From the NCBI GenBank assembly GCA_041557595.1, contig JBFFGE010000003.1, forward strand, positions 1,656-65,655: a DNA stretch of 64,000 bases, read 5' to 3'. Under the pieces are notes generated by a model. It had not been told where the DNA came from. It did not search any database and worked only from the letters and a program-made list of their open reading frames with translations. This document shows, in pieces, positions 2 through 39,032 of this stretch. This DNA is from Alphaproteobacteria bacterium. GTDB taxonomy: Bacteria > Pseudomonadota > Alphaproteobacteria > UBA8366. Position numbers and translations under genes: made by a program. How positions within the stretch are numbered: position 1 is the stretch's first letter; each line of letters begins with the position of its first letter.

Positions 2-712
2 GACGGCTGCAAGCTGGTGTCGCTCGATTACAGCCAGATCGAATTGCGCATCGTCGCCCATATGGCCGGCATCAAGGCGCTGGTCGACGCTTTTCGGGAC
101 GGCGCCGATATTCACGCGCTGACCGCGTCGCAGGTCTTCGGCATTCCGATGGAAGGGATGGATCCGATGGTGCGCCGCAAGGCCAAGGCGATCAATTTCG
201 GCATCATCTACGGCATCAGCGCGTTCGGCCTGGCCCGCCAGCTCGGCATCGAACAGCGCGAGGCGAAGGCCTATATCGAGACGTATTTCGAGCAATATCC
301 GGGCATCAACGACTATATGGAGCGGATGCGCGAGGAATGCCGGAAGACCGGCAAGGTGGAAACTTTGTTCGGCCGGCGCATCCATCTGCCCGGCATCAAC
401 GACAAGAACCCGATGCGCCGCAACTACGCGGAGCGCCAGGCGATCAACGCACCCATTCAGGGCACCGCCGCCGACATCATCAAACGCGCGATGCTCCGTG
501 TGCCGCCGGCGCTGAAACGCGAAAAACTAAAGGCGGACATGCTGCTGCAGGTGCATGACGAATTGTTGTTCGAAGTGCCGGACGCGCAGGTCGACGACAC
601 GATTGCCGCGGTGCGCGCGGTCATGGAGGGCGCGGCTGACCCGGCGGTGTCGCTGGAGGTGCCGCTGGTCGTGGATGCGGGAATTGGCGACAATTGGGAT
701 CAGGCGCACTGA
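2..712 (+). CDS. polA: DNA polymerase I, C-terminal polymerase domain (5' end lies outside the window)
   Basis: Frame is open from the window edge. Translation carries family-A polymerase motifs DYSQIELR, RRKAKAINFGIIYG and QVHDELLFE. Confidence 0.95.
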   Translation, partial: DGCKLVSLDYSQIELRIVAHMAGIKALVDAFRDGADIHALTASQVFGIPMEGMDPMVRRKAKAINFGIIYGISAFGLARQLGIEQREAKAYIETYFEQYPGINDYMERMREECRKTGKVETLFGRRIHLPGINDKNPMRRNYAERQAINAPIQGTAADIIKRAMLRVPPALKREKLKADMLLQVHDELLFEVPDAQVDDTIAAVRAVMEGAADPAVSLEVPLVVDAGIGDNWDQAH

Positions 713-755
713 TGCGCGGGCCCACAGGTTTTAGGAACATTGGGAGGGTCATCGG

Positions 756-1826
756 GTGCTGATTCGCCATGACAAACTGCGCGCCGTCGTACGCGCCATT
801 TGCGCCGCGGCCGGCAGCGAAAGCGACGAGGCGGCGAAAGTGGCGGACAATCTCGTCACCGCCAACCTGACCGGACATGACAGCCACGGCGTCGGCATGC
901 TGCCCCGCTATATCGCGTGCGCACAAACCGGCGCGTTGAAGATCAACGCGCATGTGCAGGTGGTGCGGGACGAAGGCTCGATGCTGGTGCTGGACGGCCA
1001 GACCGGCTATGGGCAGGTCATCGGCGGCGAGGCGATGGCGCTCGGTATCGAGCGGGCGCGGGAACACGGCGTCGCCGTGCTCGCGCTGCGCAACAGTTTT
1101 CACCTGTGCCGCATCGGCGCCTGGGCCGAACAATGCGCGGCCGCCGGAATGATCTCGTTCCACTATGTCAACGTGATCGGCCACAAGCCGCTGGTCGCGC
1201 CGTTTCGCGGCGGCGACGCGCGTTATGCGACCAACCCCTATACCTGTGTGCTGCCGTCGACCGATAACAACCCCACGACCCTGCTCGACATGGCGACCAG
1301 CGTGGTCGCCATGGGAAAGGTGCGCGTCGCCAAGAACAAGGGCGAGCAGGTCCGCGAAGGCGCGCTGATCGACGCGCAGGGCCGGCCGACTACCGATCCC
1401 AATACGATGTACACGCCGCCCTTCGGCGCCGTCCTGCCGTTCGGCGAACATAAAGGCTACGGCATGGCGCTGATGGCTGAGCTGCTGGCCGGCGTGATGA
1501 GCGGCGGACAGACGATGCGGGCCGAAACGCAGCGCCAGGACGACACCATTCTCAACAACATGCTGGCGATCATCATGGATCCGCGCCGCCTGGTGGACGA
1601 GGAATTCTATAAATCGGAAGTTGATGCGACGCTGGCACATGTGAAGGCGTCGCCGCCGCAGAACCCGGCGGAGCCGGTGTTGGTACCGGGCGACCCGGAA
1701 CGAATCAGCAAGGCCGAGCGCGAAGCCAACGGCGTCCCGATCGACGACAACACCTGGGAGGAAATTCTCGCCGCCGGAGAGTCGGTCGGACTCAAGCGGG
1801 GCGACGTCATGGGGATGGCCGCCTAG
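756..1826 (+). CDS. Ldh_2 family (malate/L-lactate/ureidoglycolate-type) NAD(P)H-dependent oxidoreductase
   Basis: 356-aa ORF with GTG start 8 nt after GGGAGGG. N-terminal pattern ...ANLTGHDSHGVGMLPRY... and EHKGYGMAL are typical of the Ldh_2 family. Confidence 0.8.
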   Translation: MLIRHDKLRAVVRAICAAAGSESDEAAKVADNLVTANLTGHDSHGVGMLPRYIACAQTGALKINAHVQVVRDEGSMLVLDGQTGYGQVIGGEAMALGIERAREHGVAVLALRNSFHLCRIGAWAEQCAAAGMISFHYVNVIGHKPLVAPFRGGDARYATNPYTCVLPSTDNNPTTLLDMATSVVAMGKVRVAKNKGEQVREGALIDAQGRPTTDPNTMYTPPFGAVLPFGEHKGYGMALMAELLAGVMSGGQTMRAETQRQDDTILNNMLAIIMDPRRLVDEEFYKSEVDATLAHVKASPPQNPAEPVLVPGDPERISKAEREANGVPIDDNTWEEILAAGESVGLKRGDVMGMAA

Positions 1827-1871
1827 CGAGGCCGGACGCACAAATCACAAAACGCAATTTGGGAGGACGCA

Positions 1872-2495
1872 ATGCTGAAGATCCTGGGACGCAAGACCTC
1901 GTCGAACGTCATGGAAGTGCTTTGGCTCTGTGCCGAACTTGGCATCGAGTATGATCGCGAAGATGTCGGCGGGCCGTTCGGCCGCAATGACGAGCCGGAA
2001 TATCTCGCCAAAAATCCGAACGGCCTGGTGCCGACCATCGAGGACGGCGATCTCATCCTCTGGGAATCCAATGCGATCGTCCGCTACCTCGCGGCGAAAC
2101 ACGGCGCGGGATCGCCGATCTGGCCGGACGATTTGCAGGCGCGTGCCGCGGCGGACAAGTGGATGGACTGGCAGCTCTCAAGGGTGGCGCCAATGATTAC
2201 GCCGATCTTCTGGAACCTGGTGCGCACGCCCGAGCCGGACCGCAACATGGATGCGGTCGCGGCCGCCATTAAATCGGGCTATGCGGTCTGGGGCATTCTG
2301 GACGCCCAGTTGTCGAAAACCGACTTCGTCGCCGGCAATGATTTTACGGTCGGCGACATTCCCGTCGGCATTCACGCCTTTCGCTGGTTCTCGCTGGTCG
2401 ACGACCGGCCGTCGATGCCCGGGCTCGAGGCCTGGTATGCCCGGCTCCAGGACCGGCCGGCCTATCGCGAGCACTGCATGAACCCGCTGGTATAA
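1872..2495 (+). CDS. glutathione S-transferase family protein
   Basis: 207-aa ORF with GGGAGG RBS. Thioredoxin-like N-terminal domain (NPNGLVPTIEDGDLILWESNAIVRYL) plus helical C-terminal domain. Confidence 0.85.
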   Translation: MLKILGRKTSSNVMEVLWLCAELGIEYDREDVGGPFGRNDEPEYLAKNPNGLVPTIEDGDLILWESNAIVRYLAAKHGAGSPIWPDDLQARAAADKWMDWQLSRVAPMITPIFWNLVRTPEPDRNMDAVAAAIKSGYAVWGILDAQLSKTDFVAGNDFTVGDIPVGIHAFRWFSLVDDRPSMPGLEAWYARLQDRPAYREHCMNPLV

Positions 2496-2556
2496 GGGCA
2501 ATCCGGTCCTTGCCATCGCGATGGCGTTGAATAGAGTCTAAGAAAAGGAGGACGCA

Positions 2557-2880
2557 ATGGTCGGACCGAGACGGGTACACGATATGGGGGGCCTCGATGC
2601 GGGGCCGGTGCCGCAGGAAGGGCATCAGCACGAGGCCTGGGAGAAACGCGTCGATGCCATTCGGATGCTGTGCGCGAAGTACGACCTGCTGCGCACCGAC
2701 GAGATGCGCCGCAACATCGAGGACCTCGGTCCCGGGGTGTATGACGAGCTCGGCTATTACGAACGCTGGTGCGCGGCGATCACCAATGTGCTGCTGCAGA
2801 AGAGCGTGATTTCGGTCGACGAGCTGGGCCGCAAGATGAAAGAGGTCGAAGACCGCTGGGAGAAGGCGCGCGCGGAATGA
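2557..2880 (+). CDS. nitrile hydratase family, beta-subunit N-terminal-half protein (split beta)
   Basis: 107 aa with strong AAGGAGG RBS. Shows the beta N-terminal pattern HDMGG...WEKR...D..R..IE.L.P..Y....YYERW. The stop overlaps the next start (ATGA at 2877-2880). Confidence 0.8.
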   Translation: MVGPRRVHDMGGLDAGPVPQEGHQHEAWEKRVDAIRMLCAKYDLLRTDEMRRNIEDLGPGVYDELGYYERWCAAITNVLLQKSVISVDELGRKMKEVEDRWEKARAE

Positions 2881-3176
2881 GCGAGCAATTCACCATCGGA
2901 GACCGGGTGCGGGTGCGCCGCGCCTATCCGCCGGGCCATGTCCGGGCGCCCTACTTCACCCGCGGCAAGACCGGCGTGGTTACGGCGATCGCCGGGCATT
3001 ACCGCAATCCGGAAGATTTGGCCTATGGCCGCTACGACGGCGAAATCCTGCCGCTCTACCGCGTGCGCTTCGAGCAGGCGGATTTGTGGGCGGAGTATCA
3101 AGGCGGTCCGAAGGACAGCACGATTGTCGACGTCTATGAGAATTGGTTGGAACCCGAGAAAGGAGGCGGCCGATGA
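2877..3176 (+). CDS. nitrile hydratase family, beta-subunit C-terminal (SH3-like) half protein (split beta)
   Basis: 99 aa. FTIGDRVRV...PGHVRAPYFTRGKTGVV...YRVRF...LW resembles the C-terminal barrel of NHase beta. ATGA overlaps on both sides (2877-2880 and 3173-3176). Confidence 0.75.
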   Translation: MSEQFTIGDRVRVRRAYPPGHVRAPYFTRGKTGVVTAIAGHYRNPEDLAYGRYDGEILPLYRVRFEQADLWAEYQGGPKDSTIVDVYENWLEPEKGGGR

Positions 3177-3838
3177 GCAGCCCCGACGAACACGTCCATG
3201 AGCATGACCACGACCACGATCATGACCACGACCGGACGTGTCAACCCGATATCGAGGATTCGCCCTATTCGCACTATCAGGTCATGGCGCAGGCGTTGGG
3301 CGAGGTGCTGATCGACAAGGGGATCATCACCGCCGATGAGCTGCGCGAACAGATCGAAGTGCAGGATTCCCGCAGCCCGGCCGAAGGGGCGAAACTGATC
3401 GCCCGCGCCTGGACGGATCCGGAATTCAAGGCGCAGTTCATGGCCGACGTGAATGCCGCCGCCGAATCGATGGGCGTGCCGGCCGGCGACATTCCGATCC
3501 GGGCGGTCGAGAACACGGCCGAGGTGCACAACGTGATCGTCTGCACCTTGTGTTCCTGCTATCCGCGCGGACTGCTCGGCGTGCCGCCGGACTGGTATAA
3601 ATCGCGGGCCTATCGCAGCCGAACCGTTCGCGAACCGCGCGCCATCCTGGCGGAATTCGGCACCGAGTTGCCGGACGATTTCGAAGTCCGGGTGCATGAC
3701 AGCACCGCCGACCTCCGGTACATCGTTCTGCCGATGCGGCCGGACGGGACGGACGGGATGGACGAGGCGTCGCTGGAGGCGCTGGTCAGCCGGGACTGCA
3801 TGATCGGCGTATCTCTGCCGCGTCGCCCGAAGGCGTGA
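3173..3838 (+). CDS. nitrile hydratase alpha-subunit-like / thiocyanate hydrolase gamma-like metal-centre subunit, cobalt-type motif
   Basis: 221 aa. The metal-binding claw VCTLCSCYP is encoded at 3542-3559, followed by PPDWYKSRAYRSRTVREPR. The N-terminus carries EHVHEHDHDHDHDHD. Confidence 0.85.
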   Translation: MSSPDEHVHEHDHDHDHDHDRTCQPDIEDSPYSHYQVMAQALGEVLIDKGIITADELREQIEVQDSRSPAEGAKLIARAWTDPEFKAQFMADVNAAAESMGVPAGDIPIRAVENTAEVHNVIVCTLCSCYPRGLLGVPPDWYKSRAYRSRTVREPRAILAEFGTELPDDFEVRVHDSTADLRYIVLPMRPDGTDGMDEASLEALVSRDCMIGVSLPRRPKA

Positions 3839-3881
3839 CGGCGCGCCCGCATTTTTACCAGTTGTAAACGCCTTCGCTTCT

Positions 3882-4496
3882 ATGAAGAAGTCCATGCGAC
3901 TTTTTCGCGCCTTGCTGTGTGTCCTCTTCGCCGCCGCCGTGCTGGGCGGCTGCTACCTGCCGAGCGAATTCAAGGCCGATCTCCGAATCGCGCCGAACGG
4001 CAACTACAATTTCAAATACGAAGGCCTGCTGGTGTATCTGCCGCTGGTGAAGAAGCTGTCGGAGGGCGAGCTCTCGGCGGAAGCGCTGCAAAAAGAAGTG
4101 TCGGTGATCGATCGCGATCTCGGTCGCGATTCCGGATTCAAGGAAATCGCCTATATCGACCGCGGCACCTTTCGCGTGCGCTATGCCCGGGTGGGCAACA
4201 TCGTCCAGGAAAAATCGTTCAATTTCGTGCGCTCGAGCGCGCGGATGCTGTCAATCGAAAGACGCTTGGATGGAACCGTTCACGTGATCGGCGACAAGCC
4301 GAACAAATCGCTCGCCACACAGCTCGCGCGCGGCGGCTTCGTGGTGCGCGGCACGCTGCGCGTCCAGACCGAGGCGCAGGTGGTTCGCCACAACGCCGCG
4401 GAAGTGACGGAGGCCGCCGCGAAGCTCTACATCTGGCGGATCGAGGGCGTCGAGCGAAAATCGCCCCGGCTGGTCTTCAACCTGCAGGGCCGCTGA
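3882..4496 (+). CDS. hypothetical lipoprotein
   Basis: 204-aa ORF. N-terminal signal with lipobox (MKKSMRLFRALLCVLFAAAVLGG-C). No family recognised and no obvious SD. Confidence 0.55.
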   Translation: MKKSMRLFRALLCVLFAAAVLGGCYLPSEFKADLRIAPNGNYNFKYEGLLVYLPLVKKLSEGELSAEALQKEVSVIDRDLGRDSGFKEIAYIDRGTFRVRYARVGNIVQEKSFNFVRSSARMLSIERRLDGTVHVIGDKPNKSLATQLARGGFVVRGTLRVQTEAQVVRHNAAEVTEAAAKLYIWRIEGVERKSPRLVFNLQGR

Positions 4497-4515
4497 CCGC
4501 CGGTTCGGTGGTGCG

Positions 4516-4953
4516 GTGACCGGCGCCGGATATGGCGGGCTGTTCCTCACCGCATTTCTCGCAGCCACGCTCCTGCCCCTGTCCTCGGAAGCGGTCCTCG
4601 CCGCGCTCGCTGCGGCGGAAGGATACGATCTGTACGTGTTGGTCGCCGTGGCGACCGCCGGCAATACGCTCGGCGCGCTGGTCAATTGGCTGCTGGGGCG
4701 GTTCTGCCTGCACTGGCGCGACCGGCGCTGGTTTCCGGTCGATACGACGCGGCTCGACCGGGCGTCGCACTGGTTTCGGCGCTACGGCGTCTGGTCGTTA
4801 TTGCTGGCCTGGATGCCGGTGATCGGCGACCCGCTGACCTTCATTGCCGGATTTCTCGGCATCCGTCTGCGGTATTTCGTGCCCCTGGTCGCGCTCGGCA
4901 AGGCGGCGCGCTACGCCGTCATCGCCGGCCTGGCGCAAGCGCTATTCGGGTAA
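4516..4953 (+). CDS. YqaA/DedA-type small membrane protein
   Basis: 145 aa, GTG start. Polytopic hydrophobic profile with the GDPLTF motif typical of YqaA/SNARE-associated family proteins. Confidence 0.7.
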   Translation: MTGAGYGGLFLTAFLAATLLPLSSEAVLAALAAAEGYDLYVLVAVATAGNTLGALVNWLLGRFCLHWRDRRWFPVDTTRLDRASHWFRRYGVWSLLLAWMPVIGDPLTFIAGFLGIRLRYFVPLVALGKAARYAVIAGLAQALFG

Positions 4954-4997
4954 GCGCGGCGCCGGGTTCGGGATGCGAAACGGGTATCGAACGCGGC

Positions 4998-6593
4998 TTA
5001 TGCGGCCGCGAAGATTCCGGCCTTCCTGACGTCGTCCTCGACATAGGATTCGAACTGCTTGAAGTTGTTCTCGAAACGGCCGCACAGATCGCGGGCGGTC
5101 GAATCGTAGGCCGTCTTGTCGGACCACGTGGTGCGCGGCTGCAGGACGCCTTCCGGCACGTCCGGGCAGTTTTGCGGCACCAGCACGCCGAAATTGGGAT
5201 CGGGCGCCGCCGCCACTTCGGCCAGCCGGCCGTCCAGCGCGGCCCGGACCATTGCGCGGGTATGTTCGATCTTCATGCGCGAACCGGTGCCATAGGCGCC
5301 GCCGGACCAGCCGGTATTGACCAGCCAGCACTTGGCGCCGGTCTTGCGGATCCGGTCGCCCAGCATCTTGGCGTAGACCGACGGATGGCGCGGCATGAAC
5401 GGCGCGCCGAAGCAGGTCGAGAAGGTAGCTTCCGGCTCGGTAACGCCCTTTTCGGTGCCGGCCACGCGTGCGGTATATCCCGACAGGAAGTGATACATCG
5501 CCTGGTCGGCGCTGAGCCGGCTGATCGGCGGCAGGACACCGAACGCGTCGGCGGTCAGCATGACCACGTTCTCCGGCTGTGCGCCCATTCCCCTGGTTTC
5601 GATATTCGGGATGAAGTCGATCGGATAGGACGCGCGGGTGTTTTCGGTCAATGAACCGTTGTCCAGGTCGAGCAACCGGGTCGTCGGGTCCATCACGACG
5701 TTTTCCAGGATCGTGCCGAAACGCCGGGTCGTCTCGTAAATTTCGGGTTCGGCCTTGGCCGAGAGGTTGATCACCTTGGCGTAACAGCCGCCCTCGAAAT
5801 TGAACACGCCGGTCGCGGACCAGCCGTGCTCATCGTCGCCGATCAGCGTCCGGGTGCCGTCGGCCGATAGAGTCGTCTTTCCGGTGCCCGACAGGCCGAA
5901 GAAGATGCTGACGTCGCCGCCGATGCCGATGTTGGCCGAGCAGTGCATGGGCAGCACGTCGTTTTCCGGCAGGATGTAGTTGAGGTAGGAAAACACCGAT
6001 TTCTTGATTTCGCCCGCATAGACGGTGCCGGCGATCAGCACCATTTTTTCGGCGAAATTCATCATCACCGCGCATTCGGAATTGGTGCCGTCGCGCTCGG
6101 GCACCGCCTGAAAATACGGTGCGTTGAGGATGGTGAGGTCGGGCTTGAAATTGGCCAGCTCTTCGCTGCTCGGTTCGATGAACATGTTGCGCGCGAACAG
6201 GCTGTGCCAGGGGCTCTCGGAAACGACCCGGACCGAGATCCGGTAATCCGGATCGGCGCCGGCGAACAAATCCTGCACATACAGCTTGCGGCCCTGGTAA
6301 TAGGCGCAAATTTGCCGGCGCATGTTCTCAAAGACTTCCGGAGTCGTCGGCCGATTGATCGGCCCCCACCAGATGTTGTCCTTGCTCGACGGTTCTTCGA
6401 CCAGGAACTTGTCGTTCGGCGACCGGCCCGTATGCTTGCCGGTCTCGACGACCAGCGCGCCGCCGGCGGAAATCTGGCCCAATCCGGCGGCCATTGTCGC
6501 TTCGTACAGCGGCGCGGCGCTCAGATTCCAATGCACGCTCTTCGCATTGGTGATGCCGTGGCCTTCCAGGCCGGCTTTATTGATGTGCTCCAC
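4998..6593 (-). CDS. pckA: phosphoenolpyruvate carboxykinase (ATP)
   Basis: 531 aa with the ATP-PEPCK kinase-1a loop FFGLSGTGKTTLSADG. Looks full length. Confidence 0.97.
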   Translation of the reverse strand: MEHINKAGLEGHGITNAKSVHWNLSAAPLYEATMAAGLGQISAGGALVVETGKHTGRSPNDKFLVEEPSSKDNIWWGPINRPTTPEVFENMRRQICAYYQGRKLYVQDLFAGADPDYRISVRVVSESPWHSLFARNMFIEPSSEELANFKPDLTILNAPYFQAVPERDGTNSECAVMMNFAEKMVLIAGTVYAGEIKKSVFSYLNYILPENDVLPMHCSANIGIGGDVSIFFGLSGTGKTTLSADGTRTLIGDDEHGWSATGVFNFEGGCYAKVINLSAKAEPEIYETTRRFGTILENVVMDPTTRLLDLDNGSLTENTRASYPIDFIPNIETRGMGAQPENVVMLTADAFGVLPPISRLSADQAMYHFLSGYTARVAGTEKGVTEPEATFSTCFGAPFMPRHPSVYAKMLGDRIRKTGAKCWLVNTGWSGGAYGTGSRMKIEHTRAMVRAALDGRLAEVAAAPDPNFGVLVPQNCPDVPEGVLQPRTTWSDKTAYDSTARDLCGRFENNFKQFESYVEDDVRKAGIFAAA

Positions 6594-6704
6594 TTTAACT
6601 TTCCTCCCGTCGGGCCGCCGGGTTGGGCCGAACGGCCTCCCTGGCGATTTTCCATGGTGATTGATATCTGGCGAATGGGGGTGAAATCAACTACGTCCTT
6701 CAGA

Positions 6705-7463
6705 TTACGACTTATGCCCTGATTCTCTTCGACCTTGCTTGGCGAGCGCGGCCAGTCGCGCGCGCGCCGAAGAGGGATCGAGAACAGGTTTTTCGAAGGC
6801 GATTCGCAAGAATCGTCCCGCGCGCGTCAGATCGATCCCTTCCGGATCGATGCCGCAAAGACGCCAGTCGGTCTCGGTCGATTGCGCGAGCGCCGCATAG
6901 AGCTGGATGGCGTCCGCGTGGTCGGTATTCATGTGATCCAGAATCTCCGGCTCCGCGTTGGCCAGCGCTTCCGCACCATCGGTATCGTAAAGAAACGCAT
7001 CGGCGGGCAGCCAATGGATTTCGCCGAAGCCGCCGATCAAATGGGCTCTTTCCGGCGTGACTTCATAGAAATTGAAATCGCCGAAATTCGCGTAGGCGGC
7101 GGCGCCGGAATGCCGTGCCAGATACCGGCCGGCCAGGCAGTCCTTTCGCGGTCCGTCGGCCAGACGGTGCGCGCGGCCTTGCACCGTGACGCGGGCCCCG
7201 GCCAGCCGGTCCGGGCCCGGCGCGGTGCCGTCGAAGAGCAGGGAAACCCGGTCGTCCTCGGCGATATTCCTGGTGTGATCGGCCAGGTCGGAGAGCAGCA
7301 GGACCGGGTGCGCATCCTGGCCGCAGGCGGTTTCGACCAGAGACGCGTAGGGTCGGCCGTCATGCGTTCGTTCGGCGGTGGCGAGGGTCGCCGCGCCGGC
7401 GCTCCGGATCAGGCGGCGGCAAATGTCGCCCGGGGCGGGCGCGGCAGGGTTCTGCGGGCTCAT
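6705..7463 (-). CDS. PNPOx-like / HugZ-family protein with C-terminal DUF2470-like region
   Basis: 252-aa ORF. Split-barrel FMN/heme-binding-like N-terminal half and HMNTDHADA motif in the C-terminal half. Its start overlaps the stop of the upstream SCO gene (7460-7463). Confidence 0.6.
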   Translation of the reverse strand: MSPQNPAAPAPGDICRRLIRSAGAATLATAERTHDGRPYASLVETACGQDAHPVLLLSDLADHTRNIAEDDRVSLLFDGTAPGPDRLAGARVTVQGRAHRLADGPRKDCLAGRYLARHSGAAAYANFGDFNFYEVTPERAHLIGGFGEIHWLPADAFLYDTDGAEALANAEPEILDHMNTDHADAIQLYAALAQSTETDWRLCGIDPEGIDLTRAGRFLRIAFEKPVLDPSSARARLAALAKQGRRESGHKS

Positions 7464-8128
7464 GATCTCGATTGTAGCGTGCCCGCGGCCGCCATGAGCC
7501 GGCGCATTTGCGCCGCCATTTCCTTGGGATCGGCGCCGCGCCGGAACAACGTCAGATAACGCCCATCCGGGCCCATGAAATAGACGAAGCTACTGTGGTC
7601 CATCAGATAATCGGTCGCATCGCCAGCCGAATCACCGGACCTGGAGCGCGCATAGAAAACCCGGTAGGCCTTGGCGGCCACGGCGATCTCGTCGGCGGTC
7701 CCGCTCAGGCCGACCAGACGCGGATGGAACTGCGCGACGTAGTCCGCGAGGAAGTCCGGCGTGTCGCGCGCCGGATCGATGGTGATGAACACCGGCTGTA
7801 TCGCGTCGGCCTGTCCGGCCAGCGCATCCAGCGCCGACCCCATGGTGGCGAGCTCGGTCGGGCATACATCGGGGCAGTACCCGTATCCGAAATAGATCAG
7901 CATGTAGCGGCCGCGAAAGCTGGCATCGCTGACCCGCCGGCCGCGATGGTCCACGAGGTTGAACGGGCCGCCGATATTCACCGTCGTCGCCGTCGTACCG
8001 GAAACGCGGTTGCCGGATTTGGGGTCGTCGCCGGAAATATTCCGCCAGACGATCCAGGTGGCGATTGCGATCACCACGAGCGCCACCAGCATGGCGCCAA
8101 TGACCGGTAGCGGAGGCTTGGATTTCAT
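7460..8128 (-). CDS. SCO1/SenC family copper chaperone (thioredoxin fold)
   Basis: 222 aa with an N-terminal TM anchor and a CPDVCP motif within FGYGYCPDVCPTEL. Confidence 0.9.
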   Translation of the reverse strand: MKSKPPLPVIGAMLVALVVIAIATWIVWRNISGDDPKSGNRVSGTTATTVNIGGPFNLVDHRGRRVSDASFRGRYMLIYFGYGYCPDVCPTELATMGSALDALAGQADAIQPVFITIDPARDTPDFLADYVAQFHPRLVGLSGTADEIAVAAKAYRVFYARSRSGDSAGDATDYLMDHSSFVYFMGPDGRYLTLFRRGADPKEMAAQMRRLMAAAGTLQSRS

Positions 8129-8368
8129 CGCCCTGTCCGGAGGTTGGGGCCGAGACCCTATGATCCGAGATTTGATTTCAACGCTGCATTAACCAATTTG
8201 ATATACTGTTGTTTCGGTGGGCCGCGATTAGACAAATCGACGCAGCGCGGCCCCTGCGTGAGTGCATCGAAGTCGCAACAAAGCCGTGAACGTGCCAAAA
8301 TGCTGCCATAGACACGGAAGATTGTGGTAGCGCGCCACCAACAGGTACAATTCGGCCAGGAGTTCGTC

Positions 8369-9067
8369 ATGCAGCAGACGATTGCGCTTGTCGATGACGA
8401 CAAGAACATTTTGACGTCCGTGTCGATGGCCCTCGAAGCGGAGGGCTATCACGTGCGGACCTACAACGACGGGGAAGAGGCGCTTCGCGGGCTGTCGCAA
8501 CAGCCTGTCGACCTTGCCATTCTCGACATTAAGATGCCGCGCATGGACGGCATGGAGCTGCTGCAGAAACTGCGCAGCGGCAGCAATTTGCCGGTCATCT
8601 TCCTGACCTCCAAGGACGATGAGGTCGATGAAGTGCTCGGCCTGCGCATGGGTGCGGACGACTATATCAAGAAGCCGTTTTCGCAACGGCTGCTGATCGA
8701 GCGGATCCGCACCTTGCTGCGCCGTTCAGAACTCGGCGACGAAACGCCGGTCAAGAAGGCGGATGCGGTGTTGGTGCGCGGTCCGCTGGTGCTCGACACC
8801 GAACGGCACTCGTGCTCGTGGGAAGGCCTGGATGTCCAGCTTACCGTAACGGAATTCCTGCTTCTCAAGGCGCTGGCGCAACGGCCCGGCCATGTCAAAA
8901 GCCGCGACCAGTTGATGGATGCGGCGTATGGCGAGAGCATCTACGTCGATGACCGCACCATCGACAGTCATATCAAGCGCCTTCGCAAGAAATTCCGTCA
9001 GGTGGACAACAGCTTTTCGCAAATCGAAACCTTGTACGGGGTGGGGTATCGTTACGGCGAGCAGTAA
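8369..9067 (+). CDS. chvI: OmpR-family response regulator ChvI
   Basis: ATG at 8369 follows CCAGGAG. Receiver domain (LVDDD...[14 protein letters not shown]) plus winged-helix domain. Lies next to chvG, hprK and pckA, as in other alphaproteobacteria. Confidence 0.9.

Positions 9068-38956: not shown

Positions 38957-39032
<76 letters not shown>

Follow-up and report, generated by a model that had tools for sequence, protein, structure and literature searches.

The characterized classical cobalt nitrile hydratases depend on a dedicated activator protein, such as P14K, NhlE or NhhG (PMC7329996). The three-subunit nitrile hydratase ScNHase of Streptomyces canus CGMCC 13662 (Guo et al. 2019, 2020) is encoded by the genes anhD, anhE and anhA, which specify, in this order, the N-terminal half of the beta subunit (betaN), its C-terminal half (betaC) and the alpha subunit, with predicted masses of 10.41, 11.35 and 21.33 kDa (PMC7329996). 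The enzyme was purified and assayed; it contained approximately 0.84 Co per enzyme and accepted acetamiprid, thiacloprid and benzonitrile as substrates, no activator gene was found in the genome, and an additional role as a metal and subunit-swapping chaperone was proposed for AnhD (PMC7329996). The key residues of ScNHase include AnhD-Glu56 and AnhE-His21 (PMC13243292). Other members of the family with three subunits are the plasmid-encoded PnhF of Microvirga flocculans, whose operon, according to a review, has alpha in the middle and a beta gene on either side (PMC11573777), ToyJKL of Streptomyces rimosus, whose alpha subunit is able to mature alone (cited in PMC7329996), and the thiocyanate hydrolase (SCNase) of Thiobacillus thioparus, composed of ScnB, ScnA and ScnC (PDB 2dd4). 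Here, we describe a three-gene cassette from an Alphaproteobacteria bacterium of the UBA8366 lineage (GenBank assembly GCA_041557595.1, contig JBFFGE010000003.1, positions 1,656 to 65,655); the whole stretch of 64,000 nucleotides (nt) that was analyzed is referred to as the window. The locus is a further, uncharacterized case of the architecture already purified in S. canus and represents neither a new kind of enzyme nor a new pathway. What our analysis newly adds is a sequence signature common to the split-beta enzymes and SCNase.

The cassette consists of three open reading frames (ORFs) on the forward strand: ORF1 (2557-2880; 107 amino acids (aa), 12.4 kDa), ORF2 (2877-3176; 99 aa, 11.3 kDa) and ORF3 (3173-3838; 221 aa, 24.6 kDa). 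Consecutive genes are joined by ATGA stop-start overlaps at 2877-2880 and 3173-3176, and Shine-Dalgarno sequences (AAGGAGG) can be read on the same strand at 2545-2551, 5 nt before the ATG of ORF1, and at 3160-3166, inside the end of ORF2 and 6 nt before the ATG of ORF3. The coordinates and lengths given in an earlier note on this DNA proved to be exact, and the identities that it had proposed for the products were borne out by profile searches. ORF1, which contains all three motifs of the beta N-terminal pattern (HDMGG, WEKR and YYERW), matched the Pfam profile PF21006 (NHase_beta_N) with an E value of 2.5e-19; ORF2, taken to be the SH3-like C-terminal half of the beta subunit, matched PF02211 (NHase_beta_C; 5.5e-22); and ORF3, in which the cobalt-type VCTLCSCYP claw is indeed present, matched PF02979 (NHase_alpha; 1.1e-77). 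The cassette thus has the order betaN-betaC-alpha, as in ScNHase and as in scnB-scnA-scnC, with which the earlier note had compared it. No paralogues of betaN, betaC or alpha were found elsewhere in the 64-kb window. The three genes, coupled in translation, likely make up one operon whose product is a cobalt-dependent nitrile hydratase with three subunits, of the ScNHase type and probably assembled as (alpha-betaN-betaC)2.

The beta split is a real, conserved architecture. Apart from the fact that most known beta subunits are single chains, nothing spoke for a frameshift introduced into an ordinary beta gene by assembly or sequencing, or for a locus decaying into a pseudogene. When aligned with TIGR03888, the full-length NCBI beta model of 226 positions, ORF1 spans positions 2-104 and ORF2 positions 138-225, and neither half reaches the model cutoff of 152.2 bits (62.2 and 70.3 bits, respectively). 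Positions 105-137 are missing from both halves, and since these approximately 33 linker residues of an ordinary beta subunit are absent and not merely shifted out of frame, a simple frameshift is ruled out. In addition, every cistron has its own start codon, and the Shine-Dalgarno sequences of ORF1 and ORF3 are clear.

The same split recurs in other genomes. A scan of one genome per species yielded 53 loci with relatives of the alpha gene, which were then subjected to ORF calling and phmmer searches; the search pattern, HEHDHDHD, biased this sample toward loci with a His/Asp tract. Further loci (L054-L056 and L058/L059) were added by exact-protein look-ups. The genome-scan locus nearest to the window belongs to a metagenome-assembled genome (MAG) of an uncultured Rhodospirillaceae bacterium (92% identity). 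Separate betaN and betaC genes upstream of alpha were found in L001-L013, L015, L016, L020, L023 and L026 of the genome scan, whose hosts are Rhodospirillaceae MAGs, Rhodobacterales, Luminiphilus, Burkholderiales, Beijerinckiaceae and Acetobacteraceae, and the betaN-betaC-alpha order was also present in L054-L056, L058 and the plasmid locus L062; the arrangement recurs in about 20 independent assemblies. More distant alpha genes are mostly flanked, on the 5′ or the 3′ side, by a single fused beta gene of approximately 220 aa. All three genes of the window are under purifying selection, as the ratio of nonsynonymous to synonymous substitution rates (dN/dS) between the window and three relatives was 0.08-0.19 (0.08-0.19 for ORF1 and 0.08-0.18 for ORF2). 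The recurrence in about 20 assemblies, together with these ratios, goes far beyond chance and demonstrates that the split is a conserved and selected architecture and no artefact. Collectively, the recurrence, the missing linker, the separate start codons and the dN/dS values refute a frameshift or a pseudogene, to which we assign next to no probability.

The residues expected of a cobalt nitrile hydratase are in place. The alpha claw, VCTLCSCY, occupies residues 123-130 of ORF3 and includes Cys124, Cys127, Ser128 and Cys129, its Tyr being of the cobalt type; by analogy with known enzymes, these four claw residues would hold a low-spin Co(III). BetaN was aligned to 3qxe_B and 2dd4_B; its Arg51 is the counterpart of the canonical betaArg52 of 3qxe, and it further has Arg52, Glu55, Tyr67, Tyr68 and Trp71. 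In betaC, His21 and Arg23 correspond to betaHis147 and betaArg149 of the Pseudomonas putida enzyme (alignment to residues 130-218 of 3qxe_B/3qyg_B). Arg51 of betaN and Arg23 of betaC thus sit where the two conserved arginines of the beta subunit are. By homology, Cys127 would be oxidized to a sulfinate and Cys129 to a sulfenate, the two arginines would hydrogen-bond to the oxidized cysteines, and a nitrile bound at the cobalt would be hydrated to the amide.

Among solved structures, those nearest to the window alpha are cobalt nitrile hydratase alpha chains, and the best matches overall are the classical two-subunit cobalt enzymes of Pseudonocardia thermophila, Bacillus smithii and P. putida (1ire, 1v29 and 3qxe). 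These share the claw and the catalytic arginines and tyrosines with the window proteins; however, in contrast to the window, they have a single beta chain of approximately 220-230 aa that includes the linker, the claw reads CSCYPW, and beta carries an Arg-His pair. The closer parallel is ScNHase. Besides the gene order, the subunit sizes are comparable (12.4, 11.3 and 24.6 kDa in the window versus 10.41, 11.35 and 21.33 kDa), and AnhD-Glu56 and AnhE-His21 correspond by numbering to Glu55 of betaN and His21 of betaC. ScNHase is a cobalt enzyme without an activator gene; likewise, the window cassette encodes a cobalt-type claw, no activator family was found among its neighbors, and the 64 kb contain no second beta-like gene that could be a P14K-type activator. 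As in ScNHase, maturation may proceed without a dedicated activator, with cobalt probably entering the alpha subunit directly under reducing conditions, and betaN may serve as a subunit-swapping chaperone, the role proposed for its homologue AnhD. The window differs from ScNHase in its alphaproteobacterial host and in its chromosomal, housekeeping context.

Comparison of the loci pointed to a residue pattern that goes along with the split. The position concerned is the third residue after the last claw cysteine of alpha. Arg (CSCYPR) occupies it in 17 of the 18 loci of the genome scan that have betaN-betaC-alpha order and in all four split operons found on plasmids, and Trp (CSCYPW) nearly always does so in the approximately 33 fused-beta loci; the exceptions to Arg among split loci are L013 (Val) and L040 (Trp), in which alpha comes first. 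In the window, Arg132 stands where the fused-beta cobalt enzymes have Trp. A second element lies in betaN, where the pair Arg51-Arg52 of the window has its equivalent in Arg91-Arg92 of SCNase versus Arg-His in the fused enzymes, and a third is the loss of a four-residue segment ("EPVF" in the fused enzymes) from split betaN and SCNase beta alike. In the alignment with SCNase gamma, which was displayed through a chimeric query, the gamma subunit reads VVCTLCSCYPRPILG, and the window claw with its signature residue, Cys124-Thr-Leu-Cys127-Ser128-Cys129-Tyr-Pro-Arg132 (3542-3568, forward strand), falls on gammaCys128, Cys131, Ser132, Cys133 and Arg136. In a neighbor-joining tree of alpha domains, SCNase gamma fell in with the Arg-bearing sequences of split enzymes, away from the fused, Trp-bearing group, and the window alpha does not nest inside the ordinary two-subunit enzymes. 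As the support for the key split is weak (52-61%), we take the topology as indicative only: it suggests that the split-beta enzymes examined, thiocyanate hydrolase included, form a clade marked by Arg132 of alpha and the Arg-Arg pair of betaN. The combination of Arg132 and Arg52 predicts a substrate pocket that would be more polar and more basic than that of the classical cobalt nitrile hydratases.

The alpha subunit of the window also carries a His/Asp-rich N-terminal tract, HVHEHDHDHDHDHD (3191-3232, forward strand), which in an alignment falls on the (HD)6 tract of SCNase gamma. We considered the tract as a mark of SCNase or of the split clade and rejected it, since (HD)n tracts are as frequent in the fused-beta enzymes as in the split ones and the sample is biased toward them; the tract is accordingly not diagnostic. 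It possibly forms a metal-capturing tail and, as such, may help alpha to acquire its cobalt.

The likeness to SCNase extends past the gene order noticed earlier to a counterpart of gammaArg136, the betaN Arg-Arg pair and the nonspecific His/Asp tract. A rival reading of the cassette is a thiocyanate hydrolase of compact form, which would turn SCN- into carbonyl sulfide (COS) and NH3 with the subunit logic of ScnBAC. Such an enzyme would fit the identical gene order with a split beta, the CSCYPR motif, the N-terminal (HD)n tract on alpha, the Arg-Arg pair, the four-residue deletion common to both betaN chains, and the position of SCNase gamma among the split-beta alphas in the tree. However, ORF3 scored only 204 bits against TIGR03887, the model of thiocyanate hydrolase gamma, whose cutoff is 291.45 bits. 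SCNase betaArg90 aligns with Met50 of the window betaN, and with Lys in the plasmid group; gammaArg136 and betaArg90 are reported to have been studied as the selectivity determinants of SCNase. The 12-residue insertion of gamma (residues 95-106) is missing from the window alpha, as are the N-terminal extensions of SCNase beta (~40 aa) and alpha (~30 aa) from the window proteins; the latter are, as the earlier note had stated, shorter, with 107, 99 and 221 aa versus 157, 126 and 243 aa in the PDB chains. Furthermore, the C-terminal half of alpha scored 151 bits against nitrile hydratases and 130 bits against SCNase, genes for COS handling or sulfur oxidation were not among the adjacent genes, and other three-subunit enzymes hydrate nitriles. 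Because ORF3 fell short of the SCNase model and the window proteins lack both betaArg90 and the insertions of SCNase, thiocyanate hydrolysis by the window enzyme appears unlikely, and we give a compact thiocyanate hydrolase a small chance at best.

Several observations nevertheless weigh against a nitrile hydratase of the ScNHase type. ORF3 barely passed the NCBI nitrile hydratase alpha equivalog model TIGR01323, with 253.2 bits against a cutoff of 249.85 bits, a margin of just 3.4 bits. Arg132 matches SCNase gammaArg136, a residue that was crystallized as the R136W variant of gamma (PDB 3vyg), and work by Yamanaka et al. in 2013 is said to have found that gammaArg136 helps set the selectivity for thiocyanate versus nitriles. 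That ScNHase itself has Arg at the signature position is deduced from a Streptomyces homologue. Finally, no amidase is linked to the cassette, and an activator or a cobalt transporter could be encoded outside the 64-kb window.

ToyJKL provides a third possible model, in which the cassette would encode a hydratase for 7-cyano-7-deazapurines. ToyJKL, too, is a three-subunit member of the nitrile hydratase family, and the three subunits and cobalt-type claw of the window would fit this reading. The ToyJKL genes sit in a 7-deazapurine biosynthetic cluster; genes of 7-deazapurine biosynthesis are not adjacent to the window cassette. According to the earlier note, the alpha-like gene comes first in ToyJKL, versus betaN-betaC-alpha in the window, and the sole alpha-first split locus that we found, L040, has Trp and not Arg at the signature position. 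We consider a ToyJKL-like activity very improbable. The locus L040 (5980-8744), from the Methylococcaceae lineage UBA2778, has the order alpha, betaN, betaC with a CSCFPW claw, followed by two ORFs with betaC-like domains.

Other deviations from the common gene arrangements were seen at a few loci. In L015 (4889-5740, a betaproteobacterial MAG), one ORF holds two tandem betaN domains at residues 88-180 and 180-282, and in L008 (70-930) the betaN ORF as called has about 180 additional residues ahead of its betaN domain; these long ORFs may be genuine fusions or may have been extended in ORF calling because the DNA is GC-rich. Tandem duplications also occur at canonical loci, with two beta genes in L031 (6541-7862) and two complete alpha-beta pairs in L039 (4658-7247).

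The earlier note had named a beta split only from SCNase and ToyJKL; this proved too narrow, since ScNHase, PnhF and a set of plasmid operons from Streptomyces, Rhizobium, Burkholderia and Microvirga are further cases. The plasmid operons emerged from a tblastn search of annotated plasmids for split operons, in which the beta halves carry the RefSeq labels "SH3-like domain-containing protein" or "nitrile hydratase." The operon on a plasmid of Streptomyces sp. NBC_01176 (L062) has the order betaN-betaC-alpha, an alpha subunit 56% identical to that of the window, CSCYPR and the Arg-Arg pair; position 50 of its betaN is Lys versus Met in the window, and aquaporin and HoxN genes follow it, neither of which is found in the window. 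The Burkholderia, Rhizobium and Microvirga terrae operons, like PnhF, share with the window the split beta, the CSCYPR cobalt claw and the betaN Arg-Arg pair. In contrast to the window, the order in these three operons is betaC-alpha-betaN, their alpha identity to the window is approximately 58-61%, and genes for a HoxN or CbtAB cobalt transporter are linked to them, joined in Rhizobium by an aquaporin gene. Homologues of HoxN, CbtAB, aquaporin and cyanase were all absent from the 64-kb window.

Two of these plasmid loci, L061 of Rhizobium (3445-7120) and L062 of Streptomyces (4239-8011), have a gene for an aquaporin-family channel directly after the split operon; both also have a linked cobalt transporter, CbtAB or HoxN, and in Rhizobium a cytochrome P460 gene follows. 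This arrangement gives a hint that the substrate or product of these plasmid-encoded enzymes is small and neutral. In Burkholderia sp. PAMC 26561 (L060), a HoxN transporter, an AraC regulator and a cyanase (cynS) are encoded close by, and the plasmid-encoded betaC (4457-4927) starts with a twin-arginine-like signal, SRRSWLKALAASGAAVA. Given this signal, the Burkholderia nitrile hydratase may be exported by the twin-arginine translocation pathway.

With regard to the surroundings of the cassette, the genes of the window are arranged in the order polA (end), Ldh_2, glutathione S-transferase (GST), betaN, betaC, alpha, lipoprotein, DedA/VTT and pckA (minus strand), followed beyond pckA by genes for a PNPOx-like/DUF2470 protein, SCO1/SenC and a ChvI-like response regulator. 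The run pckA-PNPOx-SCO1-ChvI (4998-9067 and onward) is typical Alphaproteobacteria synteny; in the syntenic loci L054 and L058, genes for a sensor kinase and an HprK-like protein come next. Both upstream neighbors named earlier were confirmed: the Ldh_2 gene (756-1826) is separated by 45 bp from the GST gene (1872-2495, forward strand), which in turn ends 61 bp upstream of ORF1. Directly downstream of alpha lies a gene for a predicted lipoprotein of 204 aa whose signal peptide has the lipobox LGGC (3882-4496, forward strand), which had no match in Pfam or NCBIfam. As already noted from the sequence, genes for an amidase, an aldoxime dehydratase, a beta-like activator or a cobalt transporter are absent from the flanks of the cassette.

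The conservation of this neighborhood fades with distance. The window synteny is kept in L054 (79% alpha identity). In L058/L059 (72%), a second GST replaces Ldh_2 and the DedA gene is missing; GST and lipoprotein genes are retained. In Pelagibius and L056 (67-68%), the cassette is embedded among unrelated genes. Relatives whose alpha identity is 72% or more have an orthologous GST gene next to the cassette. The lipoprotein gene, with 37-55% identity, is kept directly downstream of alpha in L001, L054 and L058/L059; in L058 it begins within the stop codon of alpha, an overlap of 4 nt that suggests cotranscription of the two genes. Clustering of the flanking ORFs of 19 split-beta loci revealed nothing in common beyond the three cassette genes, which led us to reject a conserved pathway neighborhood. 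Of the Ldh_2-GST-cassette neighborhood whose conservation the earlier note had left to be surveyed, the GST part held down to 72% alpha identity; Ldh_2 was already missing in L058/L059, and beyond close relatives nothing but the three cassette genes was kept. The pathway link to Ldh_2 that the note implied failed in the same way: no neighbor is kept outside the polA-pckA syntenic group, and Ldh_2 was rejected as a functional partner because of its absence from L058/L059. Some subclades have housekeeping genes as neighbors (lipid A acyltransferase, DUF1223, aconitase), and the others a possible N-heterocycle cluster, which is not present in the window. Within approximately 5 kb on each side of the cassette, L006, L011 and L012 (Rhodospirillaceae and Pseudomonadota MAGs) contain genes for a molybdopterin hydroxylase, a CMD-family protein and an isochorismatase-family hydrolase, together with a polysaccharide deacetylase-like gene, an esterase, an aldehyde dehydrogenase and an NMT1-type binding protein, which may constitute a cluster for the catabolism of N-heterocycles or amides.

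The cassette itself is flanked by possible transcription signals. A sigma-70-like promoter candidate (TTGCCA, a 16-nt spacer and TAGAGT; 2510-2537, forward strand) lies just 5′ of ORF1, and a terminator-like GC hairpin (3832-3847) followed by a T-run up to 3857 overlaps the ORF3 stop codon on the same strand. The promoter candidate is the sole such site in 600-5100, a count equal to chance expectation, and terminator-like sites likewise occur in the region at chance level; we regard both sites as suggestive only. A riboswitch or leader RNA at the cassette was rejected, as there was no Rfam match in 1700-4600 even at an E value of 1; the sole Rfam hit in the window at the gathering threshold is a tRNA (38957-39029).

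The signature, the plasmid members and the GST gene can be combined into a different view of the substrate, namely a small polar or anionic compound with a C-N triple bond, such as cyanamide, cyanide or a carboxylated nitrile, with Arg132 and Arg52 as the recognition elements. The Trp-to-Arg and His-to-Arg changes hold across the clade, the plasmid members lie beside aquaporin-type channels, cytochrome P460 and cyanase, and the GST gene is kept beside the cassette in the syntenic group. However, this proposal is wholly inferential; neither an aquaporin nor a cyanase is encoded in the 64-kb window, the three-subunit enzymes assayed take bulky neutral nitriles, and since GSTs are abundant in Alphaproteobacteria, their adjacency may reflect synteny only. 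We therefore regard such a substrate as rather unlikely. Equally speculative, and in our estimate no likelier, is the broader idea that all split-beta enzymes, irrespective of gene order, and SCNase represent one old lineage, marked by the Trp-to-Arg change in alpha and the His-to-Arg change in betaN, both in or near the substrate pocket. Its physiological substrates would be small polar or anionic C-N triple-bond compounds, for instance thiocyanate-like molecules, cyanamide or cyanide, and not the xenobiotic nitriles of the assays to date. Were this so, the chromosomal cassette of the window, beside which relatives keep a GST gene, would serve uncultured Alphaproteobacteria as a housekeeping enzyme that detoxifies a compound of this sort.

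On the likelier assignment as a three-subunit nitrile hydratase of the ScNHase type, the locus bears on the family in several respects. Nitrile hydratases of three subunits whose maturation needs no activator are of interest both as biocatalysts and for modeling how metallocenters are assembled. To our knowledge, few of them have been studied, and these only on pesticides, and we know of no solved structure of a three-subunit enzyme besides thiocyanate hydrolase. The signature separates split-beta from fused-beta enzymes and ties the split ones to SCNase, and it offers R132W and M50R as targets for mutagenesis of the selectivity for nitriles versus thiocyanate. Finally, the locus shows that uncultured Alphaproteobacteria commonly have the split architecture and pass it on vertically.

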